NCBI GenBank assembly: GCA_965262715.1
Contig: OZ253553.1
Location: 288,001-352,000, forward strand
Direction: 5' to 3'
Source of the DNA: Bdellovibrionales bacterium
Lineage (GTDB): Bacteria; Bdellovibrionota; Bdellovibrionia; Bdellovibrionales; JAUICD01
DNA length: 64,000 nucleotides
The position numbers and the translations under genes are program-made. The notes under the pieces are model-generated. The model was not told where the DNA came from. It worked only from the letters and a program-made list of their open reading frames with translations, and ran no database searches. Positions 14,203 to 60,276 of this stretch are shown here, one piece after another. How positions within the stretch are numbered: position 1 is the stretch's first letter; every line of letters begins with the position of its first letter.

Positions 14203-14347
14203 TTTCCCTAAAAATAGTCTCGCCTCTGGCGACTTTCTGGTAATGACCCTGACGGTTCTTACCGTCAGCAATTAGGTCATTACCTAGAAAGCTTGACTAT
14301 TTTTAGGAAGGAGACTCCTTTCATTCTTTAACATAATGTTAAGGAAA
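14203..14347 (-). repeat. Structured element A, copy 1
   Basis: Nested stems; CCAGAGG hairpin and TTTCCTTAAC start on the minus strand. Confidence 0.85.
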
Positions 14348-14521
14348 CTGTTTCACTTAAAATGCATCTGACCTCTCGAGGCAAGCCTCTTGAGGCGAGC
14401 CTCTGGTTGTTTTCTGGCAATGATGATGGCCTTACGCTATTAGAAAATGGTCATTGCCTAAAAAATCTGTTTATTTTGAGTAGACAGATTCTCCTCATTT
14501 TTTAATACAATGTTAAGGAAA
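14348..14521 (-). repeat. Structured element A, copy 2 (tandem with copy 1)
   Basis: Same architecture, with extra GAGGC-GAGCCTC palindrome units. Confidence 0.8.
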
Positions 14522-14630
14522 TCGTTCCTTTAAGAAATAAAAATTGAGATTGGTAGCGGTTTGTGGTAAAAGTTAGCTTTCTTCATGAGTATATTATATA
14601 ATAAGAATGAACAGCGGGAATATATAAGAT

Positions 14631-15209
14631 ATGGAAACCCAAAGAGATGTAACAATTCAAATACAAGATACACCAAATCCTCAGGCTAAAAAGTTTATTT
14701 TTAATACACAGCTTGTTGAAGAGCCTGTGGAGTTTGTAGATGGCCTGTCAGCAAATGCCTCTCCTTTAGCCTCTAAAATATTTGGATTTCCATGGGCAAA
14801 CTCTGTTTATATTGGAGAAAACTTTGTTTCTATCACAAAACAAGACTGGGTGGATTGGGAACTACTGCAAGAACCTATCTCTCAATTGCTTTTAGATCAT
14901 ATAAAGTCAGAAGAGCCTATTATTATAAAAGAATCTGTGTCCAATGGGTCGTCAGACATCTTAGATTCAGATACAGAGGAAGTCCAAAAAATCAAAATGA
15001 TTATTAATAGAGATATTCGTCCTTTTGTGGCTATGGATGGAGGAGATATCACTTTTAGTAAATACGAGGATCACATTGTCTATGTTGCAATGAGAGGCGC
15101 TTGTAGTGGATGTCCTAGCTCTCAAGCAACTCTTAAAGACGGAGTGGAAAGGCTTTTAAAGCAAGCTCTTCCTGAAGTCCAAGGAGTAGTTGCCGCATCT
15201 TCTCTATAA
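14631..15209 (+). CDS. nfuA: NifU/NfuA-family Fe-S carrier
   Basis: TPNP N-domain; DGGDI and GACSGCPSS motifs. Confidence 0.85.
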   Translation: METQRDVTIQIQDTPNPQAKKFIFNTQLVEEPVEFVDGLSANASPLASKIFGFPWANSVYIGENFVSITKQDWVDWELLQEPISQLLLDHIKSEEPIIIKESVSNGSSDILDSDTEEVQKIKMIINRDIRPFVAMDGGDITFSKYEDHIVYVAMRGACSGCPSSQATLKDGVERLLKQALPEVQGVVAASSL

Positions 15210-15229
15210 TAATACGTGCGAAAGTAGTG

Positions 15230-15832
15230 CTATAACTGCTTGCTTTCAGTTGTTTGGTCCCATGCAAAAGATCGAATAATGTTATTACATTCTCTCAAAG
15301 AGCTTTGGAATGAGTTGACATTGTCAATACAAGTTAGGATAACAGCTTTCTCTCTTCTTTTGAAGAACACGACTTGTCGTACTTGTTTTTCAGTTTCTGT
15401 ATTTTTGACATCTATCACATAACTTCTTTCATTTTTATGTTGAAAGGGTCTTGATCCTAAAATGCGGTAACCTAACTTTGCATAGTCTCCCATCCATTGC
15501 TCGACATATTCTTTGATGTTTTTAGCTTTACCGACATTTTTATCTACTCTTACTGTCATAATAGGTTGAAAACCGTTTGTAACAACTGGAGATCTAAATA
15601 AGAGATGGATATTTTTTTTATCCTCTGGTGCGGGAGAGTTAAACCATGAGGTATCTAATTGACTGAAAAGAAACCCTTCATCACTCCTCAGTGTTTGAAA
15701 TGCCTTAGATTCTGGATCGGATGGTTTAGGCGCATCTGGTGCTGCAGAAGCGACTGCAGAGATCAACATGAGTGAAGTGAATAAATATCTACAAACTTTT
15801 AGGTCATGGTGTAATTGTTTTTTATTTTCCAT
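15230..15832 (-). CDS. Secreted hypothetical protein (possibly PsbP/DcrB-like)
   Basis: Signal peptide; fold call is tentative. Confidence 0.5.
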   Translation of the reverse strand: MENKKQLHHDLKVCRYLFTSLMLISAVASAAPDAPKPSDPESKAFQTLRSDEGFLFSQLDTSWFNSPAPEDKKNIHLLFRSPVVTNGFQPIMTVRVDKNVGKAKNIKEYVEQWMGDYAKLGYRILGSRPFQHKNERSYVIDVKNTETEKQVRQVVFFKRREKAVILTCIDNVNSFQSSLRECNNIIRSFAWDQTTESKQL

Positions 15833-16065
15833 TGTTCTTCCTCAGGTTTTGATTATTTTTGTATTGACTTTATTTCATTTAAGCAAATTTTATAGACTTT
15901 GAAAAGCACAATCTGATGTAAATATTTATAAAATCATAAGGAAATGAAAAAAATGGGTATAACCAGAAAAAACCCTATTTAATAAGAGTTGAGTGAACTT
16001 AAAATGGTCTAAAATCCAGTAAACAGAAGATTGAAAGTGAAACAGTTTCCCTAACATCAGTTACT

Positions 16066-16365
16066 TCATGTATTTTGGCATAATTTATAAAGATAAGCAC
16101 CAAGTTTATCAGCTTCCTTTATGAGCTGGATATGACCAATAATATCTAATATAGCTTGAGTTTCTCTTAATGATCCAAAGGCAATTCTATAGAACTTTCT
16201 ACGGTCTTTAGCTGTTGCTTTAGCACTACCTTCAGCTAAATTAAGTACAATACTTAAAGAAGCTCTGTTGAATTGGTTTCTAAGTGGCTCTTTCAATCTC
16301 AACTGACTTGCTTGATGATAGAATTTAATAGCTAACTGATAAGTTTTGAATTTTTGCATTGTCAT
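16066..16365 (-). CDS. Four-helix-bundle protein (23S rRNA IVP / Avd-like)
   Basis: QFNRASLSIVLNLAEG and FYRIAFGSLRET family motifs; AGGAGG RBS. Confidence 0.88.
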   Translation of the reverse strand: MTMQKFKTYQLAIKFYHQASQLRLKEPLRNQFNRASLSIVLNLAEGSAKATAKDRRKFYRIAFGSLRETQAILDIIGHIQLIKEADKLGAYLYKLCQNT

Positions 16366-16434
16366 AAAAAATTCCTCCTTTATTAAACCCGCCAGGGCCT
16401 GGGAGGAAATTTTTTAAATGCAAAAATTCAAAAC
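16343..16434 (-). promoter_or_regulatory. Long inverted repeat pairing the RBS and first codons of the four-helix-bundle gene
   Basis: GTTTTGAATTTTTGCATT..AAAAAATTCCTCC versus GGAGGAAATTTTTT.AATGCAAAAATTCAAAAC. Confidence 0.7.
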
Positions 16435-16507
16435 AGATACTGTGTACGTTCTGAGACATAGGTTACAGAATGTTCTTGATTGCCTGTTTGCCAGAATTAA
16501 GTGGTTA

Positions 16508-16700
16508 TTGTTTTTTAGAAAAACAAGGAAAAAAATCTTTGGGGCGATGATTTGATATTTATGGCAAAGCCAAGTAGTCCTCAGGCTGTCGCCTTGCGGA
16601 AGAACTTGTCTTTTTGCCATAAATATCAAATTTTGACTTGTTATAAAGATTTAGATGATTTGTAAGGGAGAAAGAGAAGAAGATAGTAAAAGTTTTCCTT
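16508..16700 (+). repeat. Structured element B, copy 1
   Basis: TTGTTTTTTAGAAAAACAAGGAAA start; TTTGATATTTATGGCAAA/TTTGCCATAAATATCAAA stem; GTCCTC and TGCGGAAGA motifs. Confidence 0.85.
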
Positions 16701-16751
16701 ATTATCATTTGCGTTCAATTCCTCTATTTGAGAAAACCAAATATTGAGAGC

Positions 16752-16830
16752 GAAAAGAATAAGAGGTGATAAGAGCTAATGATAAAAATGAGAAGAAGCT
16801 CGCTTCACGAGTCTGGCCTCAGGGTAATGG
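16752..16830 (+). repeat. Module C, copy 1
   Basis: Similar to the reverse complement of 32974-33052 (CACGAGTCTGGCCTCA core). Confidence 0.7.
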
Positions 16831-16863
16831 TTTTGAAATTAGCTAAATAAATTGAAGGTCCAG

Positions 16864-16938
16864 CTCAACATTTTGTTAAAAAAGAAAGCGTATCTGTTCT
16901 ACTCAAAATAAACGGATTTTCTAAGCGATGACCATTTT
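16864..16938 (+). repeat. Truncated element A, copy 3
   Basis: CTACTCAAAATAAACGGATTTT shared with the copy at 57584; cut off by the next A copy. Confidence 0.65.
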
Positions 16939-17080
16939 CCTTAACATTGTGTTAAGGGACGAAGGTATCCTGCCTACAAAAAATGCATCAGGCTTTCTAG
17001 GCGATAACCATTTTCTGATGGAGCCATCAGGGTTATCGCCAGAAAGTGACCAGAGGTCAGATGCATTTTTTGTGAAACAG
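16936..17080 (+). repeat. Structured element A, copy 4 (overlaps mutY 3' end)
   Basis: GGCGATAACC/GGTTATCGCC, TGACC-AGA-GGTCA and AAAATGCATC/GATGCATTTT stems. Confidence 0.9.
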
Positions 17081-18073
17081 TGTCTTTGCAATAAGACTTG
17101 TTGGACTGTATTTTTTGATTTGAGGGAGATCGACCCATTGCTTTTGGGTAGTATCAAAGTCAAAGTCGTCTGATTGGAAATGTTTTTTTTGCATTTGTAC
17201 ATAAATATTATGATGAGTGATGGTGTGCTTGAAATCAAAAACTTCAGGAGGGTTTTTTAGTTTTTGAATTTGTCCAGGCCATATCCATTGTCCTTTTAAA
17301 AAAGCAGAATGATGATTTTTTACTAGTAGGACTTTATTCTTATAGCGATGATGATGATAGATTAAGGGTTTCCAAAGCCATGGCTCAGGCTTACGTCGCA
17401 ATCTCATTAAAGGCACGGTTTCTATTTGATGATGTTGATAACTTTTACATGTTTTTTGTAGAGGGCAGATATGGCAATTTGGAGATTGTGGTAAGCATAC
17501 TTTTGCACCTATTTCTATAAGTGCTTGATTGATATCTGCTACTTGATTGTCTTTTGCCCATTGATCAGCAAGGGATTGAAAATGTGAACGTCCTTGTGTA
17601 GTCCACCACTTTTCTTTGATCAAATGATAACGAGCTAAAAAACGAATCACATTACCGTCTAAGACTCCTACTTTTTGCCCAAAAGTAAAACTTGCAATAG
17701 CTCTACTCGTATAAGGGCCTATTCCTGGTAGAGCGATAAGTTTTTGCCAAGCCTTTGGAAATTGACCTTTATATTTTTTAAGGATAACTTGAGCTGTTTT
17801 ATGAATATTTTTAGCTCGTGTATAATAACCTAAACCGCTCCAAGCTTCTAAAACGTCATTTTCATTGGCTATGGCAAGGCTTTGGAGTGAGGGAAATTTT
17901 TTGAAAAATGCCTCATAGTAGGGAATAACGGTCACAGAAGTTGTTTGTTGCAACATGATTTCTGAAATCCAGATTTTATAAGGGTCTAGAGCTTTTTTTT
18001 GTGTTTCTCTCCATGGCAACTTGCGTCTATTTTGAAAATACCAATTTAGGAGTAACTTTTTTTTATTCATCAC
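17057..18073 (-). CDS. mutY: A/G-specific adenine glycosylase
   Basis: ISEIMLQQT, WSGLGYY, LPGIGPYT, DGNVIR and the CX6CX2CX5C Fe-S motif. Confidence 0.93.
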   Translation of the reverse strand: MMNKKKLLLNWYFQNRRKLPWRETQKKALDPYKIWISEIMLQQTTSVTVIPYYEAFFKKFPSLQSLAIANENDVLEAWSGLGYYTRAKNIHKTAQVILKKYKGQFPKAWQKLIALPGIGPYTSRAIASFTFGQKVGVLDGNVIRFLARYHLIKEKWWTTQGRSHFQSLADQWAKDNQVADINQALIEIGAKVCLPQSPNCHICPLQKTCKSYQHHQIETVPLMRLRRKPEPWLWKPLIYHHHRYKNKVLLVKNHHSAFLKGQWIWPGQIQKLKNPPEVFDFKHTITHHNIYVQMQKKHFQSDDFDFDTTQKQWVDLPQIKKYSPTSLIAKTLFHKKCI

Positions 18074-18294
18074 TTTTAAAAATCCAATTTATATAAAACT
18101 TTACATTATTAAAATAAATGTAATAAAGTACTTAGGTTTACGAATAGTGAAGTCTAAAAATATCCAAAATATTGATGGTTGTTACAGTTTATTTACCAAG
18201 AAACCTCTCATTTATATCTGTAAGTGTAAAGATATTTTTTGATGTTTTATTGAAGTTAATAGTCAGTTTTTATAGATCACTAAAGTAAGGTAAG

Positions 18295-18979
18295 ATGGTA
18301 GAGCATATCTCTGATCCTACACAGCTTTCTTTTGTTATGATTCTACTTTTAGGGCTTTCTTTATCTGTTCTTAGCGGTGCTGTGGGACCTTTTGTATTGG
18401 CAAGTAAGACAAGCTCCTTAATTGGTAGTGTTTCTCATGCCATATTGGCAGCTGTGGGCATTGCTGTTTATTTTGATTGGAATCAATCTCTATCAAAAAG
18501 GATATGATGGAGAAGAAATCATGCATGTTCTATTTGGCAACATAAAGCATCTTAATGAACAAGATATTGTTATTTTATGTGTAGGCAGTTTGAGTGTAGT
18601 AGGATTTGTTGTATATTATTTTAAGAAGTTTTCTAATATGGTTTTTGATCTTGGACGGTCAAAGCATCTAACACCTTCATCTCATTTGATATATTTATTT
18701 CTTTTAGGACTTATTTCCTTCACTGTGATACTGATGGTGAAATTTGTAGGGATTGTTTTGGTTTTATCTTTACTTTCTCTGCCAGCAGCAATAGCTACAC
18801 GATTGACTCAAAAAATGCATCAACAGATTTTTTATGGGATTGTTTTAGCAATGATCATGACATTTGGAGGCTTAAAATTGTCTTTTTTACTTTATTGGCC
18901 TATAGGGGCTACAATCACATTATTTAGCGGGATTTGTTATTTGCCATTTTTATTTAACAGAAAAAATAAAACTATTTGA
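18295..18979 (+). pseudogene. Zn/Mn ABC transporter permease (ZnuB/MntB-like), frameshifted and probably internally deleted
   Basis: N-part (SVSHAIL) and C-part (LFGNI, VGIVLV..LPAA) lie in different frames; total length is short. Confidence 0.7.
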
Positions 18980-19386
18980 AATATGGACATAATCATAGTA
19001 AGAATAATCTTTATAAGGATATATTTGTGAAAGAGATCATATCGAGATTTTATCAAGTCACCATTATTATTGTTTTTATTGTGATTTTTGTATCTTGTTC
19101 TTCATCATTAAAACAAAATAACCAAGGCTCTGCCCAAGATTCAGAAGAGCCGGCACAAGAAATGAAACCGGAATGGTTAGAATGTAAGGCAAATATGGAT
19201 TGTATAAAAGTAAAAGGTTTTTGCAAAATGCCAGCAGTGGTTCATGGAAAATACAAAGAAGCTTTTTTAGATTTTGTTAAGCAGAATAAAAATCCTATTG
19301 ATTGTAGTAGATATAAAGGTATAGATTATGATTCTATTGTAGAAGCTGCTTGTGAAAATAAGCAGTGCAAATTGATCATACCTTGA
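18976..19386 (+). CDS. Small Cys-containing lipoprotein
   Basis: IFVSC lipobox; several Cys; start uncertain. Confidence 0.55.
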   Translation: MKYGHNHSKNNLYKDIFVKEIISRFYQVTIIIVFIVIFVSCSSSLKQNNQGSAQDSEEPAQEMKPEWLECKANMDCIKVKGFCKMPAVVHGKYKEAFLDFVKQNKNPIDCSRYKGIDYDSIVEAACENKQCKLIIP

Positions 19387-19407
19387 TCTTAAAACTAAGT
19401 CTTTATT

Positions 19408-19498
19408 CATAAAATTATGTAAAAGTTTCATATCTATTATGTTATTTTTTCACAATCTTGGTCCATCTGGACAACAAATGTCACTTTTTTCTAACTCT
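19408..19498 (+). repeat. ~85-bp intergenic direct repeat, copy 1
   Basis: Similar to 20533-20612 and 23642-23732. Confidence 0.85.
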
Positions 19499-19714
19499 TA
19501 TCTCAAGATTTTTGTCAGTTTGAAAAATTATTTACAATATCTTTGTTATTTTGGTATAATAAATAAAGACTTTATTGTACAAGTGTCTCCACAATGAACG
19601 ATTTTTACAGAATTGTTACTTGTAAGCTTCTGGACACCTAATAAATAAGTGGTTAGATAGGCTGGCAAGTGTTAAATTGTTGATGTTTATGCAATAATCT
19701 TATAAACGTGTGGT

Positions 19715-20002
19715 ATGAGGGATAGAGTTGATTTTTCAAAAGTAGAAAAATATCTCAAACGGTTGCCAAAAAGGATATATGAATTATTTTTTATATGGGT
19801 TGATTTTATTGAGAAAGATGGATGGGAACATACAAGGCATTTGAAGGTATATAAAGATCATACTCTCAAAGGTTTTTGGAAAGGGTTTAGGTCAGTTAGC
19901 TTAAAATGGTCTTATAGGATTATCTATCAACACCAAAAAGATGGGAAAATAAATATTATTAAAATAGAAAGGATCAGCAAGCATGACTATAAAAAAAGCT
20001 AG
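19715..20002 (+). CDS. RelE/HigB-family mRNA interferase toxin
   Basis: YKDHTLKG.WKGFRSVSL..SYRIIY; toxin-first order, overlapping an HTH gene. Confidence 0.8.
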   Translation: MRDRVDFSKVEKYLKRLPKRIYELFFIWVDFIEKDGWEHTRHLKVYKDHTLKGFWKGFRSVSLKWSYRIIYQHQKDGKINIIKIERISKHDYKKS

Positions 20003-20345
20003 GCAAACAGCATCTCAGAAACTAGCAAAAAGATATGGTCCTCTTAGAATAGGTAGTGTTTTAAGGTTACATAGACAAGGGGATAAAATCACTCAACTTA
20101 AAATGGCTAAAAAATTAGGTGTTACTCAAAAAGAACTTAGAGAGATTGAAAATAACCGATTGCTTCCATTAGTGAATTTTGTACATAAGGCTGCTTTAGT
20201 ATTTAAAAGCAGTCCTAAAAGCTTTGAGAGAATCTTAAAAGAACAAATAAAAAGAGAAAAACCAAATAAGCTTATAAAGTTTCAAGCAACAGCAACTCAA
20301 CTTTTATCAATGATTCAAGCTGTATCAAGAGATAAAACTCAATAG
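19983..20345 (+). CDS. HigA-like Xre HTH antitoxin
   Basis: ITQLKMAKKLGVTQKELREIEN. Confidence 0.75.
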   Translation: MTIKKARQTASQKLAKRYGPLRIGSVLRLHRQGDKITQLKMAKKLGVTQKELREIENNRLLPLVNFVHKAALVFKSSPKSFERILKEQIKREKPNKLIKFQATATQLLSMIQAVSRDKTQ

Positions 20346-20532
20346 GTCATCAAAAATTCATCATTTTATTAGTTAAGAGTATTTAAAATTGAATAATCTT
20401 TCTTATTTTGAATAGAACGCTTTGTTTGCCAAAGTTGAGTTTTCCAGTTCTCTGGAATCTGGAAGTTATAGAAGTCAAGTTGGATACAAGTGCAGATAGA
20501 TTAATAAGAATCAATTCTATATAAGAATATTT

Positions 20533-20612
20533 CGTAAAATCATGTAAAAATTTCATATCTATTATGTTGTTTTTTCACAATCTTGGTCCATCTGGACAAC
20601 AAATGTCACTTG
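20533..20612 (+). repeat. ~85-bp intergenic direct repeat, copy 2
   Basis: Near-identical to copy 1, including the GTCCATCTGGAC palindrome. Confidence 0.85.
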
Positions 20613-20712
20613 TTTTTAGTATTTACTCTCTCTCTCTTTATAAACTACTAATATCACTTATTTTTTTTACATTTCCTTAACCTTTATGATTTGTAGTTTT
20701 TGTTTATATTTT

Positions 20713-20730
20713 TTGGCATTGATTGTGCAT
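20713..20730 (+). promoter_or_regulatory. Putative sigma54 promoter
   Basis: TTGGCATTGATTGTGCAT = GG-N10-GC, ~55 bp before the ATG. Confidence 0.5.
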
Positions 20731-20784
20731 CATTATGTTTGTTTTTACAGATGTATATGATCAATTTTTAAAAAGGAGCTTATA

Positions 20785-21642: not shown

Positions 21643-21669
21643 TCTCTTAAGTTGTTATGAATCTAAAAG

Positions 21670-21700
21670 AAAAGGCGGTGTTTGATAGCTGCCTTTTTTG
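21670..21700 (+). terminator. Intrinsic terminator
   Basis: AAAAGGCGG...CTGCCTTTTTT. Confidence 0.65.
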
Positions 21701-22599: not shown

Positions 22600-23607
22600 A
22601 TGTCAGTTCATCGCAATAACAATAATCAACAAAGGAGTTCTTTTAGAGGACATCCTCATGATTTATTTTTTAGAAGATTTTTTTCTGGTAACAAGGAGGT
22701 AATAGCATTATTAGAAACAATTTTACCTCAATCTATCTTATACCTTCTTGATCTATCTAATTTGAAGATTGAGAATAGTATTGTTGTTAAAGGTTTAGAG
22801 ATAAGAGTTGATTTAGTGTTAAATGTAAAACTTAAAAAGTCTAAAAAGAAAGCTAAGATATTTTTTATCATAGATCATAAGAGTTGGCCGGAGAGAAAAG
22901 TCATACAACAGTTACTAAAATACCAATTCATAATGATGGAGAAACATTATGATGATAAAGAAGATTTTTTATCTCCAGTTTTAACTATTATTTTCTATCA
23001 TGGTCATAAAAAATGGAATCCATCATTTTCTTTACATAAGGATTGGGTCTCTAGAGGAGTTTTTTCAAAGAAAGATTTAGGGAGAATTTCTCAATATCTT
23101 ATAAACTTCACTCCTTATTTTTTTAATTTATCTGAATTTGATATAGAAAATAATGCGATAAAGAGGATAAAGCCAATTTTATACACGTTTAAGCAGATTT
23201 GGTCTTTAAATAAGCTTAAGAGTTTGGAGGAGAAGAAAGCCGCATTATATAAGATTTTGTTATCAGTAAAAAAGGACTTACAAGGAGAGGAAAAAGAGTA
23301 TATAATAAATGTGCTATCGGGTATAAAGAGTTATCTTCTTCAATACAACCCGGAGTTAGCAAAGGGGTTATTAGATGAAGTCTCAAAAGATGTCACAGAA
23401 GAGTTAGGAGGAAAGAATATTATGTTTGATTTTATAACAGAGTTTGCTCAAAAAAACCTTCAGACAGGGAAACAAGAAGGCCTACAGGAAGGAAGGCAAG
23501 AGGTGATATTAAAGCTGCTTAAAGCTGATATGAGTGTGGAAAAGGTATCTAGAATTACTGGTTTTTCAAAAGAAAAAATCCGTAATTTTCAAAAAGACTC
23601 TAAATAA
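22600..23607 (+). CDS. Rpn-family (YhgA-like) PD-(D/E)XK nuclease
   Basis: HPHDLFFR, RVDLV, IDHKS, IIFYHG..KW, C-terminal GKQEGLQEG repeats plus HTH. Confidence 0.88.
   Translation: MSVHRNNNNQQRSSFRGHPHDLFFRRFFSGNKEVIALLETILPQSILYLLDLSNLKIENSIVVKGLEIRVDLVLNVKLKKSKKKAKIFFIIDHKSWPERKVIQQLLKYQFIMMEKHYDDKEDFLSPVLTIIFYHGHKKWNPSFSLHKDWVSRGVFSKKDLGRISQYLINFTPYFFNLSEFDIENNAIKRIKPILYTFKQIWSLNKLKSLEEKKAALYKILLSVKKDLQGEEKEYIINVLSGIKSYLLQYNPELAKGLLDEVSKDVTEELGGKNIMFDFITEFAQKNLQTGKQEGLQEGRQEVILKLLKADMSVEKVSRITGFSKEKIRNFQKDSK
23422..23607 (+). CDS. Putative in-frame internal small Rpn protein (RpnS-like, 61 aa)
   Basis: AGGAGG at 23406-23411 before an in-frame ATG at 23422. Confidence 0.6.
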   Translation: MFDFITEFAQKNLQTGKQEGLQEGRQEVILKLLKADMSVEKVSRITGFSKEKIRNFQKDSK

Positions 23608-23641
23608 AGATAAATAAAGATTTATTTTGTAAGTCACATTT

Positions 23642-24308: not shown

Positions 24309-24333
24309 ACATCTTAAGGCTACTATAAGAATA

Positions 24334-32708: not shown

Positions 32709-32804
32709 TTAAGTGTTCTGGCATAACTTATAAAGATAAGTACCTAGCTTATCAGTTTCTTTTATGAAGTTATGATGACCAATGATATCTAATATAGCCT
32801 GAAC
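32709..32804 (-). pseudogene. 3' remnant of a second four-helix-bundle gene
   Basis: Translates VQAILDIIGHHNFIKETDKLGTYLYKLCQNT*, matching the C-terminus of 16066-16365. Confidence 0.9.
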
Positions 32805-32806
32805 TG

Positions 32807-32951
32807 GTTTCACTCAAGATGAATCTGCCTCTGGGAGTTTTTTGGCAATGACCCTGGCGGCTAATGCCCTCAGCAAATAGCTTATTGCCTAGAAAACATG
32901 TTTATTTTGAGTAAATAGATACTCTTCGTTTTTTATACCATGTTAGGGAAA
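32807..32951 (-). repeat. Structured element A, copy 5
   Basis: CCTCTGG, GGCAAT..ATTGCC and ATGTTAGGGAAA. Confidence 0.8.
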
Positions 32952-32973
32952 TCGGCTAAACTTATTTAAGTCT

Positions 32974-33052
32974 CATTGCCTTGAGGCCAGACTCGTGAGA
33001 CGAGTCTCTTCCCATTCTTATCATCAGTTTTTATCACTACTTATCTCTTTTG
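32974..33052 (-). repeat. Module C, copy 2
   Basis: Reverse complement similar to 16752-16830. Confidence 0.7.
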
Positions 33053-49310: not shown

Positions 49311-50130
49311 TTTTCCTTAACATTGTGTTAAAGAATGAGGGTAGTCTCCTCCTAAAAATAGACAGATTTTTTAGGCAATGATCATTTTACGAGGACGTTA
49401 GTCGTCGTGATCATTGCCAAAAAACAGCCAGAGGTGTGGAAGTATATTGTTTTTTAGAAAAACAAGGAAAAATCTTGAAGGAGCTGAAAATTGATATTTT
49501 AAGCTAAGTCTCGAAGTCCTCGATGAGATCGCCAAAAAGCGATCTCATCTGCGGAAGATCTCGTCTTTAGCTTAAAACATCAAATCTTAATTCCTATGAT
49601 AAAGATTATAGGTGATTTGTAAGGAGAAGAGACGGTAAGAGGAAGTTTTCCTTAACATTGTGTTAAAGAATGAGGGTAGTCTCCTTACTAAAAATAGACA
49701 GATTTTTTAGGCAATGATCATTTTACGAGGACGTTAGTCGTCGTGATCATTGCCAAAAAGCAGCCAGAGGTGTGGAAGTATATTGTTTTTTAGAAAAACA
49801 AGGAAAAATCTTGAAGGAGCTGAAAATTGATATTTTAAGCTAAGTCTCGAAGTCCTCGATGAGATCGCCAAAAAGCGATCTCATCTGCGGAAGATCTCGT
49901 CTTTAGCTTAAAACATCAAATCTTAATTCCTATGATAAAGATTATAGGTGATTTGTAAGGAGAAGAGACGGTAAGAGGAAGTTTTCCTTAACATTGTGTT
50001 AAAGAATGAGGGTAGTCTCCTTACTAAAAATGAACAGGTTTTTGAGGCAGTTAGCATTTTCTTGAAGGCGTGAGCCTTCAGGCTAACTGCCCAAAAGTGG
50101 CCAGAGGCCAGTTCATTTTTAGGGAAACAG
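49311..50130 (+). repeat. Tandem array A-B-A-B-A (period 335-336 bp)
   Basis: A copies start at 49311, 49646, 49982; B copies at 49447, 49783. Confidence 0.93.
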
Positions 50131-52615: not shown

Positions 52616-54739
52616 ATGAAATGTGTAAACTTATGGGTTATAGCTTACTGTACATTAGTAGTTGGTTGTTCTTCTTCAACAACGGAAGACAGACCTAATG
52701 CTCTTGCAGAAACCCTTCAGAGCAACACTGTAAGTAATTGCCATATCTCTCGGGTTGTTTCTGAAGAGACTCAAGCTATTATATGGAAGGCTATATGGAA
52801 TGAGGATAGAAAAGAAGTTATTGCTTTAGATAATGATAGAGATAGAGATAGGTATACTTTTTCAGAAGCTATGTCTGTTAATGATAAAGATATAAAGGTT
52901 TTGCTTTCTGATCGCTCACTACTTTCATTACGTCGTTCTTATAGAGTAGTAGGTAATGATATTAGTTTTAAGGTTCTTTATATTAAGCCTTCAAATTCAG
53001 ATGAAGAGAATATGATACAGGCTGAACTTCATGTAGTTAAAATAGAAGATTTGAAAAAGGTCCATAATGAGGGTGAAGAAATACTCAGTGATCTTCCTGT
53101 CAGTGAAGCAGAAGCTTGCTATACATTACTTGCTCAAAAAGTAGAAAACACTGTAGTGTCTGTAGAATCTATAGGTGAAGAAGGTTGGAAAGACCCTGAT
53201 AAGATAAAAAGCTTATTTGATAATAGAGAAATTTATCAAACAGTTTCTTCTAGCGCTTGGAAGTCATCTGATCAATCTGAAACATTGAATGCGCAGACAG
53301 CCATGAATGTGGAGCTTATAGATATCATAACTGATGGTCGTGATCCAATAAGTATTGCTTTTACGCAATCTAATTCAGAATTTAACGACCCTACATCTTC
53401 AGTTAGACCTTCCATTATAGGATTGGAAATCCCTATTACAGGAAGTGGAATTCCTATTATAGGTAATCTTATGAGAGATAATCTAGATGATGAAATTTTC
53501 AATCTAGATATCAAGAAGAAAACTCTCAATCCTTTTGAACTTATCTTTGATTTTTCAGGTGGAAGAGCTAATAACCAGGTAGATTTTACTGTTTCTGTTC
53601 AGACAACCGAATTTTTATCTCAACCTGAAGATTCAAATCAAGCTACTTCTCAAGAAATAGAGACTCAATCTATACCTCAATCTAATGTTCAGGCAGAAAC
53701 TCCCCAAGTTCAAACTGCATTGCAAGCTGCCGACCATGAGACAAAAAATCAAGAACAACCTATAACTGAAGCAGAAACCGAATCAGTACCTCAGGTTGCA
53801 GTTGAAACACAGCTTCAATATCAACCTACAACTGAGTTTGAAATACTGTCTCCACCTGAAATGAGTGAAAATTGTAAAAGCTCTGATAGTTTTATTTCTG
53901 CTTCTGAGGAGACTCAATCTATTATATGGCAAGCCAGATGGAATGCTTCTCAAAATCAAATTGCCTCTTTAAGGCATATTAGAGATACTTATACCCTTTT
54001 AAATGCTGTATCTGCAAATGGTTCAGATATAAGTATTGTCATTTCTGATGAAGATTTACTTATTCGTGAGAGTCGATTTAGCAGACTCAATACAGAGACT
54101 TTTCAGGTGCTTTATATTCCAAATGCAAGCATAAATGATACAATACAGTTTAATTTGCATAAGCTGACACAAGAGGAACTTGAGCCTATTTATCTGGCAG
54201 CTAAAAATCATGAAGTGTTACTCGACCATCCAGCAACTCAAATGGAAGCTTGTTATACAATCAAATTAGAAAGAATGGATGACACTTCAATTTTTGCAGA
54301 ATATGACCCAGATACTTCTTCAAGGAAAGAGAATAAAATTAAAGACCTCTTTCAAAACAGGGTAGTGTTTAGAACAACCTCTTATAGTACTTGGGTGTTA
54401 GGGAATTCCTCTGATATAAATATAATGCGAGAGGCAGCTACGCATTTAGAACTTGAGGATATTTCAGAAGATGAGCGTACTCCATTGAATATTGCCTTTA
54501 AACACTCCTTACCATTTAATGATTCTATATCTTCAATTAGACTTTTTATCGTGGATGTGAAGATATCATCTTGGGGGTTTCTGACAAACAATCTTGATAA
54601 TGAAATATTCAACAGACATTTGAAAGGACAATCCTTAGATCCTTTTGAGCTTGTTTTTGGTTTTTCAATAGGAGAGTCTGAAGACAAAAAAGATTTCACT
54701 ATAGGAATTACTTCAGTACCACTTGCTCAATCAGAATAA
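52616..54739 (+). CDS. Lipoprotein with two homologous ~300-aa domains
   Basis: VVGC lipobox; SEETQ.IIW.A.WN, EACYT, NLD.EIFN and PFEL.F.FS each occur twice. Confidence 0.75.
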   Translation: MKCVNLWVIAYCTLVVGCSSSTTEDRPNALAETLQSNTVSNCHISRVVSEETQAIIWKAIWNEDRKEVIALDNDRDRDRYTFSEAMSVNDKDIKVLLSDRSLLSLRRSYRVVGNDISFKVLYIKPSNSDEENMIQAELHVVKIEDLKKVHNEGEEILSDLPVSEAEACYTLLAQKVENTVVSVESIGEEGWKDPDKIKSLFDNREIYQTVSSSAWKSSDQSETLNAQTAMNVELIDIITDGRDPISIAFTQSNSEFNDPTSSVRPSIIGLEIPITGSGIPIIGNLMRDNLDDEIFNLDIKKKTLNPFELIFDFSGGRANNQVDFTVSVQTTEFLSQPEDSNQATSQEIETQSIPQSNVQAETPQVQTALQAADHETKNQEQPITEAETESVPQVAVETQLQYQPTTEFEILSPPEMSENCKSSDSFISASEETQSIIWQARWNASQNQIASLRHIRDTYTLLNAVSANGSDISIVISDEDLLIRESRFSRLNTETFQVLYIPNASINDTIQFNLHKLTQEELEPIYLAAKNHEVLLDHPATQMEACYTIKLERMDDTSIFAEYDPDTSSRKENKIKDLFQNRVVFRTTSYSTWVLGNSSDINIMREAATHLELEDISEDERTPLNIAFKHSLPFNDSISSIRLFIVDVKISSWGFLTNNLDNEIFNRHLKGQSLDPFELVFGFSIGESEDKKDFTIGITSVPLAQSE

Positions 54740-54741
54740 AC

Positions 54742-54761
54742 TAGAACCGGTCTCAAAAATA
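54742..54761 (+). repeat. 20-bp direct repeat, left
   Basis: TAGAACCGGTCTCAAAAATA, identical at 57141. Confidence 0.85.
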
Positions 54762-55186
54762 CATGATAGTAGTAAATAATACAAAATTGCAAAATACAAA
54801 ACATAATATAACCATTACCAGATCACGAATCATAAGAAATGATCTCAATGAATATTAAGAGCTTTCTTATATAAATTGTGTAAAAACACTTGAAACTTAA
54901 ACTCAACCCTTTTTATTGAGGTGTTTTTACGTAAGATCAGTAATAAGTAAGAAATTTCAGGCTTATAAACTTGTTGTATGTAGCTTCTTATTCAAACGTG
55001 TTGGCTCATATAAATAGAGAATTATTGACATATATAGATTCATCTAGATATACTGCGTTATTTGTGTTATGTTAGAGTTTAGATGGTATTTTTACAATTT
55101 TTTAATTGTACTTTAAGTAAATATAGTGTACAAGGGTTTATTTATGATATTCGTTATTTTTTGAATTAAGAAATTGGATTTAATTT

Positions 55187-55840
55187 ATGAAAAAAATAAT
55201 ATTAACAAATAGTGCAATAACTCTGGTTACACAAAATCAACCGCAATCTGTAAATCATGAATTCTTGGTTCAAAAAGATATTATTCCCAAGGACTTTCAA
55301 GTTAATGATAAAGAAGTTTTTTATACGCCTTTTGCAAGTAAAATAGGGTATACAAATGGATTTGGTATAATAACTGAGCCAGATAGAATATTGTTTCAAG
55401 TATCAAGGATACCTAATTTTGAAGAAAAAAAGAAGAATTATTTAGATTTACTAGAGAATATTTCATTAAATTATGTAACTTTTTTTAAAGAGATGATAAA
55501 ATGGGAGGCTGTGGGGATCAATTTTCAGTTTATAAAGGATGACTTACAATTTGACACTTTTGTTGACCAATCTATAAAACTAAATAGTTCATGGTTTAAT
55601 TTTGAAGGTAAAAAAGGTGACATTCAAAAGATTGATATATCTTATGATTTGAAGGGTAAGCAGTTCAATATAATTATTCATAAAGGTTTAAAAAGAAATA
55701 TTCAAAGTAACAATGAAGATTCTTGTACATTTTTTACAATAAATGTACATTATCGCGATAAATATGACGATATAGTTAATATTATTAGTGAATTAAAAGA
55801 AAATTATGAAAAATCACAAGAATTTATAGGTAGAAGCTAA
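55187..55840 (+). CDS. Hypothetical protein (possibly TIGR04255-like)
   Basis: 217-aa ORF; beta-rich AVGINF pattern; family call tentative. Confidence 0.5.
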   Translation: MKKIILTNSAITLVTQNQPQSVNHEFLVQKDIIPKDFQVNDKEVFYTPFASKIGYTNGFGIITEPDRILFQVSRIPNFEEKKKNYLDLLENISLNYVTFFKEMIKWEAVGINFQFIKDDLQFDTFVDQSIKLNSSWFNFEGKKGDIQKIDISYDLKGKQFNIIIHKGLKRNIQSNNEDSCTFFTINVHYRDKYDDIVNIISELKENYEKSQEFIGRS

Positions 55841-56502
55841 TGAATTCAGGAAAATCTGAAGGTATAAAATTTGAACTGCTTTTGCCAAGAATAACATCAC
55901 TTTTGCAGAAACCCACACAACGAAAAGAGACCTATTATTGTGGAAATACATTTGATACAGGTATAAACTTCTCTCATAACTTACTAGATAATAATAACAC
56001 AAATTTATTTTTAGTTGAGGATGTTGTTTCTCTGCAACATGTTCTTAACTTTTTATATGATCATAATTACAAAATAAAAAATGAGTTAGATAAAATTTTA
56101 AAAGATTTACATGAATTCTGTAAAAAAGAAGGCTTTGAACTTTTTTCTGATAAAGCAAAAGAAAATGCTATACAAATTATAAAATTTATAAAAAATCATT
56201 ATCCTGATTATGATTGGGATATTTATGCTACAGAAGATCAAGAAATTGCAGTAGACTGTACACTTGAAAAAGGAGGCTTATTGATACTTTGTGACTCAAG
56301 TGGGGAATTAGCTTATTTCAAAACACTTAATGGAAAAAACAGTAGATATAGATGTCAAGATATTAATGACTTTCCTTTCGATCAACTAAAAAGAGAACTT
56401 AATTCTTTAGAGGATTATTCATTAAAACCTTCATTAGTTGATGTTGATACGAAGATATATGATTTTATAAAACCAGTGGGTCTTTTTGTAGAATCAAAAT
56501 GA
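55840..56502 (+). CDS. Hypothetical protein
   Basis: Translationally coupled on both sides (TAATG, ATGA overlaps). Confidence 0.6.
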   Translation: MNSGKSEGIKFELLLPRITSLLQKPTQRKETYYCGNTFDTGINFSHNLLDNNNTNLFLVEDVVSLQHVLNFLYDHNYKIKNELDKILKDLHEFCKKEGFELFSDKAKENAIQIIKFIKNHYPDYDWDIYATEDQEIAVDCTLEKGGLLILCDSSGELAYFKTLNGKNSRYRCQDINDFPFDQLKRELNSLEDYSLKPSLVDVDTKIYDFIKPVGLFVESK

Positions 56503-56903
56503 ATATAAGGTTGTCTAAAGATGTAAATGATGATGATAAGCTTGGAAGAGGTAGTTTTTCAACAAAAGATGTAAATAAAGCTGGCAAAGTAAGATACTGT
56601 TTATTCTTTTATAAAAGAAAAGACACTATTTCTGTAGACCGTCTTTTTAATTTTTGTTTAGAAAAACTAACAGCTATTCAAGATAAACATGCTCAAAAAA
56701 GAAATCAATTTTATGGATGGGCTGGTATAAAAACCTTAGATGCTAAAAAAAATGGTAGAAAAACTCAATCAAATCCAGTTAAAGACAACCCCTATCATGC
56801 TAATATTATTCTACCTAAAAACATAGAAGATGATGATCGAAGAAGCCATGCTAAGGAGCTTGCGTTTTACTCTAAATGGGTTGAAAGATATAAATCAGGA
56901 TAA
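56499..56903 (+). CDS. Putative ADP-ribosyltransferase-like toxin
   Basis: LGR, ISVDR and NPYHANI motifs resemble small ART-fold toxins. Confidence 0.45.
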   Translation: MNIRLSKDVNDDDKLGRGSFSTKDVNKAGKVRYCLFFYKRKDTISVDRLFNFCLEKLTAIQDKHAQKRNQFYGWAGIKTLDAKKNGRKTQSNPVKDNPYHANIILPKNIEDDDRRSHAKELAFYSKWVERYKSG

Positions 56904-57140
56904 ATTTTAGTCTTTAGATAATTTTGTTTTTATGTTTTTGAGAATGAGTGAATGACTTCAGGGTATATGTTACCGGGAGTTGATAATGTTATTTTGATTT
57001 TAGACTGGCTTTCCTCACAATCCTTCTCTTGTTTATCATTATCAACCCTTATAGATTCTAGAAGACTTCAAGATGAACTTAGTGATTTAGGACTATTGTC
57101 AATTCGAGATAAGATATTGAAGTTATAAGCTATATCTTAT

Positions 57141-57160
57141 TAGAACCGGTCTCAAAAATA
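57141..57160 (+). repeat. 20-bp direct repeat, right (abuts a partial element E at 57105-57141)
   Basis: Identical to 54742-54761. Confidence 0.85.
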
Positions 57161-57306
57161 AAAATTTAATAAACATTTCCAGTGATTCATAACTTTATCT
57201 AACTATAATGTATATCAGTGTTCACCTTCGTCTATAAACGTTTGTACCTATTACCTCTAATTTCTTGTATAAAAGGGTTATCTTCCTCAAAATGAATCAG
57301 CTTTTT

Positions 57307-57468
57307 TTTCACTAAAATGCATCTGACCTCTCGAGGCGAGCCTCTGGTCACTTTCTGGCAGTAAGCCCGACGGCTCTTATGGCCGTCGGCAAATAGCTTA
57401 CTGCCTGGAAAGGCTAATGCATTTTAGTAGGGAGGATCTTCTTGTTTCTTAGCACAATGTTAGGGAAA
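57307..57468 (-). repeat. Structured element A, copy 9
   Basis: GGCAGTAAGC/GCTTACTGCC, CGACGG/CCGTCG and ACTAAAATGCAT/ATGCATTTTAGT stems. Confidence 0.9.
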
Positions 57469-57583
57469 TTTTATTCTTGCCATCGGATCAGTACCTAGAT
57501 TTATTTCATGGACAATCCTCAAAAAGGCTAGCCTCGAGAGGCTTGTCTTCTATTCATTTTGAGTAAAAGCAGGATGAAGGAAG

Positions 57584-57727
57584 TTTTCCTTAACATGATG
57601 TAAAAGAACGAAGAGATCCTCTCTACTCAAAATAAACGGATTTTTAAGGCAATCAGCATTTTGTTGACGGTGTTAACCGTCACGCTGATTGCCCAAAAAC
57701 AACCAGAGGTTGGTTTATTTTGAGTGA
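57584..57727 (+). repeat. Structured element A, copy 10
   Basis: GGCAATCAGC/GCTGATTGCC, CAACC-AGA-GGTTG and ACTCAAAATAAAC/GTTTATTTTGAGT stems. Confidence 0.9.
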
Positions 57728-57877
57728 GTTTGTATAATGCAAAACTGGTATTTTTTTCTAAAATTGTTATCTCTAATAGCATTTTTGAGATGGCTTCTAA
57801 CTGATCTTACTTGTATAAACTATGCCAAAATACTTGATTTCTTTACCTTCTATGAAATGGCAACAGCCTCTAGTAGA

Positions 57878-58531
57878 TTAGTCATTATTTTTATTATTTG
57901 GGGAAGGAATAGATGTATTTTGAGAAAAGTATAGAGGTTTATCAAGTTTTACTTTTATCTCTTCTGAATCTGACTCTTCTGATATAAAAGAAACTTCTGA
58001 GATAAACCATAATTCTGGCCAGAAATCTGTCATAGAGGATGAAGAAATCAACGTTTGGTTGTATTCTACTGGACGGGTCGTCATTTGAGAAGGTGTTATT
58101 TCTGAAAACATTGTTATTGGAATTTGTAATGACTGGATATAATTGTTTTCACCTATTATACAAGGGCTTTTTAGAGTCAATGAAGGCTTTTCCCCTGATA
58201 CAGCCACTCCATCTGCTAAAACTTTTACTTCAATAGTCTGAAAGTATTCGCAAGCACTTCTGCCTTTTTTGCCATCAACTTGCATTTGGAAATGTGGTAA
58301 ATGAATGTTAATATCCTCTGTTTGATAAGTGATATGCAACTCTTTCAAGAGTCTATTGATAGTGGCTTTTTCAAGAGAACCACCTGACAGTTCAGAATAA
58401 TCAGTATGTATATCCTTTGGAATAGAAGCTAACTGACGCTCAGTCATTTTATGGGGTTTGGAATAAAAAAAGCCAAGCGAAAACATTAAGATAAACAGTA
58501 AAATAGAGCAAAATAATTTGAAAAAGTTCAT
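57878..58531 (-). CDS. Membrane-anchored hypothetical protein
   Basis: N-terminal TM helix followed by an RQLAS motif. Confidence 0.6.
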   Translation of the reverse strand: MNFFKLFCSILLFILMFSLGFFYSKPHKMTERQLASIPKDIHTDYSELSGGSLEKATINRLLKELHITYQTEDINIHLPHFQMQVDGKKGRSACEYFQTIEVKVLADGVAVSGEKPSLTLKSPCIIGENNYIQSLQIPITMFSEITPSQMTTRPVEYNQTLISSSSMTDFWPELWFISEVSFISEESDSEEIKVKLDKPLYFSQNTSIPSPNNKNND

Positions 58532-58705
58532 ATCTATATTACTATCGGCAAATCAGACTGTTGGTTTTGAATTTTTTTCTACAAATTTGATTTTAATGAC
58601 ATTTGCTGATTTATTTCGACTATTTTATTGAATTGGTGTGAGAAAGAGGCTTATCTTGTAGAGATTTCTAATATATATTGTACAATAGATAATAAGGAAA
58701 ATACT

Positions 58706-59152
58706 ATGAAAACACTGTCAAAAAAGGCTAGACCAGAAGATTGGATTGCTCAATTTCAATCTTTAGACAGCTGGGAAGAAAGATATCGTCACATCATCCA
58801 AATGGGTAAATCTATAGAGCCATTAGAAACCCGATATCAAACTGAAGAGTATTTGGTAAAAGGCTGTCAATCTAAAGTCTGGCTTGTAGCCTCCTTTGAT
58901 CCTCCTAAGGTTCATTTTAAGGCCAATAGTGATGCCCTTATTGTTAATGGGTTGATTGCTATTTTACTAGAAGTGTATTCAGGAAAAGCTCCTCAAGACA
59001 TTCTCAAGTTATCTCCTACATTTATAGAACAATTAGGGCTTAATACTCATCTTTCTCAAACCAGATCTAATGGATTGATTGCAATGATCAAGCAAATTAA
59101 ATACTATGCTCTTGCTTTTTCATCCTTATCAGAATCTGGTAAAAAGGTCTAA
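58706..59152 (+). CDS. sufE: SufE-family sulfur acceptor
   Basis: VKGCQSKVW, SDALIVNG, LSQTRSNG; ATG 58706 has an RBS. Confidence 0.9.
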   Translation: MKTLSKKARPEDWIAQFQSLDSWEERYRHIIQMGKSIEPLETRYQTEEYLVKGCQSKVWLVASFDPPKVHFKANSDALIVNGLIAILLEVYSGKAPQDILKLSPTFIEQLGLNTHLSQTRSNGLIAMIKQIKYYALAFSSLSESGKKV

Positions 59153-59155
59153 AAA

Positions 59156-59932
59156 ATGTTTCATGTACCTGTAAGATATATATCCAGTTTTGATAATCCT
59201 CGATTTAAGCTTTGGACATCTCTTAAAAAAGCAAAAGGGATCAAAAAAGCAAACAAATGTCTAGTTTCAGGCCGAAAAATTTTAGAAGAATTATCACAAC
59301 AAAAGCCTCATCTTTTTGATGAAATTTTATATCCACAGCAATTAGAAGTTCATCACACACAACAGAATGATGGGCTTTTAGAGTTTGCCAGTAAGCTATC
59401 TCTACCTGTGTTTAGATTAAAGCAAGATTTGTTTAAGTGTTTAGATCTTTTTGAAATAAATGCCCCTATAGGTGTTTTAAAAGTACCTCAGATAGATTCA
59501 TGGGATGAAAATCAACCTTGTAAAAATAAAGAGATACTTTTACCTTTGGGAAATTCTTTAAACTTAGGAGTTGTTATTCGCTCAGCCAGAGCCTTTGATA
59601 TTTCAAGTGTAGTCCTTTTAGAAGAAGCTGCTCATCCATTTCTACCACAAGCCATTCGATCTTCTAGTGGTGCTGTATTTCACACTTTTTTTCTTTTAGG
59701 TCCTTCTATTCGAGAGCTTCAAAAGCCTCTTTTAGCTTTAGCATTAAATGGAGTTCCTTTAACAAAATTTGTTTGGCCTAAGGAGGCTAGGCTTCTCATC
59801 GGAGAGGAAGGTTTAGGACTTCCATCAAACTTGTCTATGACCCCTATTTCTATAAAGATAGCAAAAGAAGTGGATTCATTAAATGTAGCTGTAGCTACGG
59901 GGATTGCTTTACATCATTGGCAATCCAGTTAA
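59156..59932 (+). CDS. TrmH/SpoU-family RNA methyltransferase
   Basis: NLGVVIRSA, GEEGLGL, DSLNVAVA. Confidence 0.88.
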   Translation: MFHVPVRYISSFDNPRFKLWTSLKKAKGIKKANKCLVSGRKILEELSQQKPHLFDEILYPQQLEVHHTQQNDGLLEFASKLSLPVFRLKQDLFKCLDLFEINAPIGVLKVPQIDSWDENQPCKNKEILLPLGNSLNLGVVIRSARAFDISSVVLLEEAAHPFLPQAIRSSSGAVFHTFFLLGPSIRELQKPLLALALNGVPLTKFVWPKEARLLIGEEGLGLPSNLSMTPISIKIAKEVDSLNVAVATGIALHHWQSS

Positions 59933-59940
59933 AGAGATTG

Positions 59941-60130
59941 TGTTTTTTTAGAAAAAACAAGGAAAAAATCTTTAGAAGCTTTGGTTTGATGCATAAGTTA
60001 AGTCCTCGAGCTATCGCTTGGATAGCGATAGCTCTGCGGAAGACCTCGTCCTTTAACTTATACATCAAACTTTATTTGCCATGAAAAGATTTAGTGTGAT
60101 TTGTAAGAAGAAGAGATAGTAGTAGGAGGA
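59941..60130 (+). repeat. Structured element B, copy 4
   Basis: GAGCTATCGCT/AGCGATAGCTC apical stem between GTCCTC and TGCGGAAGA. Confidence 0.88.
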
Positions 60131-60276
60131 TTTCCTTAACATCATGTTAAAAACCGAAGAGAGTCTCCCTACTAAAATGCCTCCTACTTTCTAGGCAGTT
60201 AGCTACCTGCTGAAGGCGTGAGCCTTCAGGCTAACTGCCAGAAAGTCGCCAGAGGCGAGAGGCATTTTAGTGAAAC
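60131..60276 (+). repeat. Structured element A, copy 11
   Basis: GGCAGTTAGC/GCTAACTGCC, TGAAGGC-GTGA-GCCTTCA and TCGCC-AGA-GGCGA stems. Confidence 0.92.

Follow-up and report, generated by a model that had tools for sequence, protein, structure and literature searches.

How does a short non-coding repeat come to fill the intergenic regions of a bacterial genome, and why do the two arms of its stems change together? This question is raised by a 64,000-nucleotide stretch of DNA from a Bdellovibrionales bacterium (the window; positions 288001-352000 of contig C1 in genome G000, a single contig of 2.94 Mb with 33.6% GC), in which a repeat family of about 145 bases, here named element A, recurs between genes; its strand as written is termed the top strand. 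The element is folded and asymmetric, occupies lineage-specific sites, has ragged junctions, inserts into its own copies and is flanked at some loci by long duplications of neighbouring DNA. It is best explained as a non-autonomous selfish repeat with two unlike ends, the left one defined by sequence (TTTCCYTAACAT..TGT) and the right one by shape, namely a three-way junction followed by a short GAAACA tail. A probability of about 0.4 is assigned to the reading that A takes the form of a folded single strand which primer-template switching copies in at nicks, with the mover enzyme a matter of candidates.

A profile hidden Markov model built from eight window copies returned exactly the 11 copies, in both orientations, that a preliminary description of the window had listed. 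All of these are present and seven contain the whole junction. Not all are complete elements: the copy at 16865 is a 5' fragment, and the outer stem is missing its right arm at 49312 and 49647. Across G000, the first profile gave 438 matches and the refined profile, then used genome-wide, 468 non-overlapping copies or fragments (305 full length), which amount to 63 kb or 2.2% of the DNA at 234 loci, 100 of them with at least two copies. Only 17 of the 468 lie mostly inside called open reading frames (ORFs), the rest being largely between genes, and 215 of 234 adjacent pairs point in the same direction. In the congener G001, a single contig that is 90% complete, 661 matches make up 5.2% of 1.6 Mb taken without regard to A. 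Covariance-model searches, in which 20-25 candidates per genome were scored, matched three of 121 genomes of the order (G000, G001 and G004) and only G000 among 150 genomes of the phylum. A loose pattern run over genome contigs found at least 136 loci, all from one Bdellovibrionales record among the matches listed, and pattern scans of viral contigs, metagenome contigs, plasmids and phages gave no match. The A-bearing contigs of G004 (C1, C4 and C11) are 82-95% identical to G000, far above the 65-74% of the first 20 kb of each of five large G004 contigs, which are free of A; judged by this identity they are probably mis-binned, and G004 was therefore rejected as a third host. The element is thus so far confined to one genus. 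Rfam scans of A returned no family at threshold (tRNA alone reached it), in agreement with the earlier failure to match A to a known family, and literature searches found no description of A, nor of an A-like repeat associated with PF05635 or Rpn.

From left to right, A consists of a 5' motif, a variable stretch, the outer stem P1, which encloses a long arm P2 with an asymmetric internal loop and a side hairpin P3 with the loop AGA, and the tail GAAACA(G). The 12 bases of the 5' motif, TTTCCYTAACAT, are the best-kept sequence of the element in both G000 and G001. In the full copy at 49983..50127 (+), the motif occupies 49983-49994, P1 pairs about 50021-50033 with 50110-50122 after a variable purine-rich stretch, and P3 lies at 50098-50110, followed by the 3' tail GAAACAG. 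The fold is borne out by covariation. All 14 of the strongest mutual-information pairs are nested Watson-Crick pairs, and with one copy per locus (154 copies) Watson-Crick combinations fill 5629 cells vs. 4139 expected. Adjusted mutual information reaches 0.51-0.76 between the two arms of one helix and 0.13-0.35 between adjacent arms of different helices; because helix arms are linked more tightly than physically adjacent arms, shared ancestry alone is an insufficient explanation. When 24 sequences were aligned across genomes, both partners had changed in 31 of 42 pairs; none of 500 shuffles reached that count, and sliding the partners gave 9 at most. Along tree branches, co-change is 0.21-0.50 in partner columns vs. 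0.04-0.06 in non-partners of the same helix, and 201 of 223 same-branch double changes end in a Watson-Crick pair. The median folding z-score of 40 copies is -7.1. The covariation of the three-way junction proposed in the preliminary description thus survives tree-aware controls, shuffles and slid registers, and all 10 outer- and inner-stem arm pairs quoted there were found at their expected places.

Two points of that description have to be revised. The TTAAC..GTTAA segment, drawn there as a hairpin, exhibits no covariation and pairs at chance level (one pair is Watson-Crick in 71 of 150 copies, with 71 expected); it is a sequence motif rather than a covarying hairpin. Covariation is also absent from a candidate second hairpin (GGAG/CTCC) and from a weak end-to-end inverted repeat, TTTCCYTAA/TTAGKGAAA. 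Wobble pairs were said to leave the strand unsettled, yet there are 165 G·T and 90 A·C combinations (p=3e-6 under independence, which the copies do not fully satisfy); this excess favours the top strand as the folded one and does not separate RNA from single-stranded DNA. The sequencing runs listed for this DNA included no RNA run. Two candidate features were tried and rejected. An interior flip-flop was suggested by 19 of 303 candidates, nearly all of which are tandem neighbours on the other strand, two resembling fusions of inverted copies. Resemblance to a XerD arm, a -10 box or attC was considered for the left motif and gained no support, as no promoter was called on the motif and the spacing is wrong.

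Mobility of the element follows from a comparison of its sites. Of 524 ends of genes with orthologs in the two genomes, 7 are followed by A in both, 41 in G000 alone and 60 in G001 alone (p=0.65), so that sites are shared between the congeners no more than by chance and A must be regarded as mobile. Copies also insert into other copies: a new 5' end begins within 45 nt of the break in 47 of 92 3'-truncated copies in G000 and in 166 of 212 in G001. Other copies occupy hairpins, the ends of tRNAs and the interior of dispensable gene families. Fold, unshared sites and copies within copies together support the original reading of a structured, mobile, non-coding element. No replication-strand bias was found (113 of 220 loci).

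The junctions of A are asymmetric. On the right, flanking DNA begins 0-7 nt past GAAA, with carried tail bases or microhomology of 1-3 nt. On the motif's left side, copies fall into families with common linkers of different lengths, which in G000 consist of repeat B (a companion repeat described below) or purine-rich tails and in G001 of directional heptamer blocks (53 vs. 3 of 254). For 101 of 266 full copies, the 60 nt after the element recur in the preceding 400 nt, whereas controls gave 4% and 2%; most of the copies bearing such duplications lie in tandem arrays, at about 27 loci in all. A script for the arrangement X-A-X, in which a flanking piece X stands on both sides of the element, gave 32 cases (locus-strands) among 161 loci in G000, of which six doubtful ones were dropped and one was added by inspection to give 27, about 20 of them independent. 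The piece X measures 24-92 bp, starts mostly 73-86, 43-56 or 30-34 nt upstream, often represents the 3' end of a gene or tRNA (rpmJ, rpsQ, asd, grxD and tRNAs; gene names read from translations) and has subsequently grown into arrays with as many as 16 copies. Each unit of a 257-bp array contains an A copy. The same rpsQ duplication structure is present in an independent assembly and is therefore not an assembly artefact. Many X-A-X loci are read as local duplications of flank plus element rather than as fresh insertions. A synonymous bias of duplicated gene ends (14 vs. 4 from the script) was rejected, since two dropped loci held 9 and 4 of the changes, which leaves 5 vs. 0; ordinary recombination between strains can explain it. 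At 386600-387700 of G000, the asd 3' end is duplicated in an A array with 10 of about 57 bases differing, 8 of them synonymous as counted by eye, which suggests that it came from another strain.

No fixed short target duplication or 5-bp direct repeat is seen in flank logos or junctions. The earlier statement that A lacks target-site duplications therefore stands for fixed short ones and has to be amended for the 24-92-bp flank duplications at about 27 loci; likewise, no terminal inverted repeats matching the ends of the resident insertion sequences (IS) compared (IS1634, IS30, IS3 and IS1595) were seen, and only the weak repeat given above qualifies their reported absence. Without a fixed duplication and with ragged ends, A is indeed no ordinary transposable element of the miniature inverted-repeat type (MITE).

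The trans-acting factors first suggested for A, a reverse transcriptase (RT), a RAYT/HUH enzyme or an IS110 recombinase, were searched for and none fits both A-rich genomes. An IS110 DEDD recombinase was not found in G000, where positive controls matched. Across G000-G004, GIY-YIG domains occur once per genome in frames of 612-653 aa, DUF559 is present in three of the five, TnpB gave weak matches only, within 1300-aa frames, and a search for AEP found none. G000 and G001 contain two tyrosine recombinases each, not flanked by A, and G003 and G004 gave no match; one of these enzymes is a conserved stand-alone, catalytic-domain-only protein of 185-187 aa (G000 892897-893454; G001 L399:7789-8352).

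Primer-template switching accommodates the asymmetry of A, its ragged right end, the variable stretches carried over from upstream, the long duplications and the fact that no matching enzyme was found. The top strand of A would transiently exist as a folded single strand, and the small number of tail bases left free next to the outer stem would pair with a 3'-OH end at a nick or stalled fork. DNA polymerase would then copy A plus a variable stretch of upstream flank before returning to its original template; return to the same locus would create X-A-X-A arrays, and return to a new locus an inserted element plus a short linker. Copies could subsequently exchange helices and junctions by homologous recombination, and stems might be corrected arm-from-arm in a single step. 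As a guess, the nicks could come from expanded Rpn (PD-(D/E)XK) nucleases, and the folded strand could be bound by an Avd-like four-helix-bundle protein. RpnA leaves 3'-OH ends that are proposed to prime template switching (PMC5350276).

One-step correction would account for many double changes within this model. Double changes in stems comprise 141 transitions and 50 transversions, vs. 512:306 in unpaired A columns and 398:85 in the genome background, and their ratio is near a one-step spectrum rather than its square. Two successive changes by way of G·U would yield a far larger excess of transitions than is observed. Template switching has been published as a route to compensatory double changes (PMC8794818). 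If stems are corrected in this manner, the strong covariation of A does not have to signify a functional RNA; what it marks is selfish DNA.

Several findings weigh against primer-template switching. No enzyme is tied to A, the strict keeping of the left motif is not explained by the model, and a replication-slippage version predicts a leading/lagging bias which neither the loci counted above nor the duplications (14 of 27) display. In G001, X-A-X arrangements with unique flanks are less common: 17 of 565 were obtained prior to curation, and several of these lie within other repeats. The 23 nested insertions examined there, with target changes of -77 to +12 nt, reuse few junction types and mix haplotypes, and are therefore not clean single events. 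No clean empty site was found among contigs of four runs or among contigs of about 90% identity; in the comparison with the G004 contigs this is because intergenic turnover is too high. Stem correction in one step is only suggestive: transitions make up a larger share of double changes than of changes at unpaired sites (p=0.003), and tree counts are inflated by helix swapping, of which the copy behind mutY (16936..17079) is an example, its ortholog on a G004 contig having the same 5' part and a different inner-arm haplotype.

The guess about Rpn meets its own difficulties. The family has 43 matches in G000, 57 in G001 and none in G002, and 48 of 52 genes in G001 are near A; however, it is not clearly enriched near A in G000 (3/27, 6/24 and 4/22 vs. 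14.8%), 20 matches occur in G003, which has no A, and the element mostly interrupts Rpn genes in no fixed orientation. RpnA is also described as having little sequence or conformation preference (PMC5350276). As observations in their own right, the family is strongly expanded in G000, G001 and G003, and in the window an Rpn/YhgA gene (22600-23607) is followed by one of three copies of a 108-nt repeat (19396, 20521 and 23630).

The strongest of the rival explanations, unlikely as it is, resembles the retroposition of short interspersed nuclear elements (SINEs): A would be the structured 3' end of an RNA reverse-transcribed at a target nick by an RT acting in trans, perhaps together with an Avd-like protein, the flank duplications being long target duplications and the linkers 5' transductions. 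A fixed but ragged 3' end, variable 5' extension, microhomology and the top-strand wobble excess fit this scheme, and G000 carries two group II-type RT genes and one of retron St85 type. However, RVT_1 has no match in the single contig of G001, the genome richer in A, and none of the three RTs of G000 has A on both sides, the nearest copy being at a tRNA beside the retron island. The duplications are also no commoner behind sense genes (16/27 vs. 107/193). A diversity-generating retroelement (DGR) was not detected, as the RTs of G000 are of group II or retron type and none is beside a four-helix-bundle gene.

Four-helix-bundle genes also speak for retroposition, being enriched near A in both genomes. 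The family exceeds the cut-offs of the PF05635 and TIGR02436 profiles (60.7 vs. 33.8 bits and 62 vs. 24), and its structure model (predicted local distance difference test 94.6) adopts an S23/Avd-like fold with template modelling (TM) scores of 0.73-0.86 to 2GSC/2RLD; against the DGR Avd structure 4DWL, the TM score is 0.64 with an E-value of 0.43. DGR Avd has been linked to PF05635 (PMC10053308). In G000, 20 of 30 loci are within 300 nt of A vs. a background of 14.8% (gap-level odds ratio 9, p=8e-9). In G001, 12 of 13 genes are near A, and a same-strand A motif follows within 140 nt downstream of 9 of 10 ORFs (background 6.2%) and also stands upstream of 5 of 10 (background 7.7%); the arrangement there is heptamers, a ribosome-site hairpin, the gene, heptamers, a linker and same-strand A. 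Matches number 35, 26, 24 and 30 in G000, G001, G004 and G021, and A is found recurrently at codons 64-68. Against a role in retroposition, the cassettes are expanded without A in the main contigs of G004 and in G021 and are often broken by A, which may make them targets or passengers of the element; those of G001, moreover, are closely related to one another.

A bolder combination of these ideas, rather improbable as a whole, makes A the short form of a transposase-free mobile system: the folded 3' junction would itself prime the copying of the element into nicked DNA, and upstream DNA would be carried along, including heptamer-armed cassettes of the Avd-like four-helix-bundle family, whose protein would bind the folded strand; this would be a bacterial SINE-like system or its single-stranded DNA equivalent, with self-correcting stems.

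The cassettes and the RT genes provided further observations. Heptamer-armed cassettes are seen in the window (16066-16400), in G001 (L128:17364 and L131:10660) and in G004 (L145-L161). In G031, G035 and G025 (L086, L087 and L088), a palindrome that is almost perfect and has the leader hairpin at its centre connects divergent pairs of four-helix-bundle genes, an arrangement resembling the product of fold-back copying. Several cassettes on the large G004 contigs (L146, L150, L153, L160, L161, L073 and L078-L081) have another dispersed structured repeat next to them, one that G000 lacks, and several four-helix-bundle genes of G004 (L157-L161) share an insertion of about 66 nt at codons 50-54. 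The retron locus of G000 (2650522-2652294; L053:1282-3054) is a 590-aa ORF in which a St85-family effector and the RT are fused, next to a partial tRNA-Asp repeat, and two group II intron remnants are located at 1928850 and 1880284 (L052 and L054), one with an internally deleted RT.

It is doubtful that the resident DDE transposases of the IS1634 family, whose direct repeats are long and variable, move A as a MITE. IS1549/IS1634 elements are reported with direct repeats of 8-514 bp (PMC2266710). Members of IS1634 reside in both genomes, 7 of 13 copies tested in G000 carry direct repeats of 50-312 bp, and the ends of A show the weak repeat, 9-10 nt long, along with a CA that is mostly conserved close to the 3' end. 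However, all four IS1634 end types seen begin with CCTGA, unlike A, and the IS30, IS3 and IS1595 ends that were compared do not resemble it either; moreover, the right junction of A is ragged, most copies lack a duplication, a DDE enzyme would not need a covarying junction, and only 3 of 41 IS1634 loci are near A. The window itself contains an IS1634-family element between 50-bp direct repeats (6211-8166), one of about 41 loci with four end types in G000.

Equally doubtful is a REPIN-like route, in which A would be moved as single-stranded DNA by an HUH enzyme (RAYT, IS200 or rolling-circle type) since lost or carried on a visiting element. Structure kept over sequence, one favoured strand, BIME-like clusters and mosaics, and a single IS200-type Y1 gene in G000 speak for it. 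That gene, however, is a plain IS200 TnpA rather than a RAYT and is not bracketed by A, a Y1/RAYT search of G001 gave no match, and a search for Y2 enzymes (IS91/ISCR) gave none either, although no control genome matched in that search. Scans of viral contigs, phages and plasmids, which gave no match to A, likewise count against this route. HUH joining is generally precise and is not known to make a duplication, unlike the ragged junctions of A.

Least plausible is a host-kept regulatory RNA element, a terminator or 3' stabiliser spread passively by recombination: in two window copies the side hairpin together with a T-run receives a terminator-like score, 13 of 39 tRNA/tmRNA genes are within 300 nt of A and 15 ORFs end inside an opposite-strand copy that supplies their stop codon, but sites are unshared beyond chance, upstream-gene orientation is nearly even (124 vs. 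92) and copies break genes and each other.

The window illustrates most of these forms. A full copy with an intact three-way junction was identified by the profile at 14203..14347 (-; fold -66.5 kcal/mol), and its 5' end is abutted by the 3' end of a mosaic copy at 14348..14521 (-) with a doubled side hairpin and outer-stem arms that do not match (AAAATAAAC vs. GATGCATTTT). A fused remnant at 16034..16057 (+) joins the A 3' end GTGAAACAG to an A 5' motif at 16046 and adjoins the stop of an Avd-like four-helix-bundle gene (PF05635/TIGR02436, 99 aa; 16066..16365, -) with a hairpin over its ribosome-binding site. The 5' fragment at 16865..16935 (+) is cut in the inner stem and directly followed by the full copy at 16936..17079 (+), within which the stop codon of a convergent HhH-GPD (mutY-like) gene (17057-18073) falls. 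The copy at 32807..32951 (-) is full length with several stem mismatches and is followed by a C-terminal four-helix-bundle gene fragment (32712-32813). Thirty nucleotides after tRNA-Asn, the copy at 49312..49443 (+) opens a 336-bp [A+B] tandem, in which it and the second unit (49647..49779, +), both without the right outer arm, are followed by repeat B at 49447..49643 (+) and 49783..49979 (+) and then by the full copy described above. Full copies at 57307..57468 (-), with a doubled side hairpin, and 57585..57727 (+) are divergent from each other, and the copy at 60131..60275 (+), also full, has repeat B directly upstream (59941..60128, +) and a short 3'-end remnant of another copy after it.

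Repeat B, also present in part at 16508..16679 (+), is a structured repeat of about 195 bp with 87 profile matches, self-complementary ones included, 38 of which have same-strand A directly after them. A further dispersed repeat (16759-16842 and 32961-33044) recurs near four-helix-bundle fragments. At 8100-13589, the window encodes a protein of 1829 aa that contains cysteine-rich repeats, matches nothing in Pfam and has several paralogues in G000. Elsewhere in that genome (2198524-2198863), four tandem tRNA-like copies with a four-base anticodon call precede tRNA-Trp.

How structured repeats without terminal inverted repeats, such as bcr1 and the Rickettsia palindromic elements, move is a question that the junction statistics of A address: hundreds of copies in two nearly complete genomes speak against the usual movers and toward a testable template-switch route, and bring in two candidate protein families of poorly known function, Rpn and PF05635. 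The element is also a clear case of strong covariation on selfish DNA, possibly arising from one-step stem correction, and it reshapes gene ends by duplicating them and by supplying stop codons to 15 ORFs.

Among known systems, A resembles MITEs in being short, non-coding and intergenic with a stable fold (PMC10969869), and long variable duplications like those of IS1634-type MITEs also occur for IS1634 in G000 (PMC2266710). Unlike MITEs, it has asymmetric ends without matching terminal inverted repeats or a fixed duplication. With retroposons lacking long terminal repeats and SINEs, as their mechanisms are generally understood, it shares a fixed ragged 3' end, variable upstream carry-over and microhomology, and an Avd-like gene upstream of A in G001 recalls the avd-TR-spacer cassette of DGRs; unlike either, A comes with no RT in G001, no template/variable repeat pair was seen, 5'-truncated copies are a minority and a sense-strand bias is missing. 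Rickettsia palindromic elements, ERIC, CIR and SPRITE are likewise lineage-specific structured repeats of 100-150 bp with an uncertain mover (PMC3184786); A differs in lying mostly outside ORFs and has no Rfam or sequence link to them. Like REP, REPIN and BIME sequences, A forms hundreds of intergenic folded copies, clusters and mosaics, probably with single-strand recognition (PMC3184786), but it flanks no RAYT or Y1 gene, none being found in G001, and consists of a multi-helix junction with a left motif rather than a tagged short palindrome. The nearest described case is bcr1 of the Bacillus cereus group, of about 155 bp, in which compensatory changes at unconserved positions keep a branched fold and the mover is unknown; its account describes transcription and 5-bp direct repeats at every copy (PMC3184786). 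A is alike in size, mobility and compensatory changes, and differs in having ragged ends, no fixed duplication, 24-92-bp duplications at a minority of loci and self-nesting. Element A belongs with such structured, non-autonomous repeats as bcr1 and REPIN.

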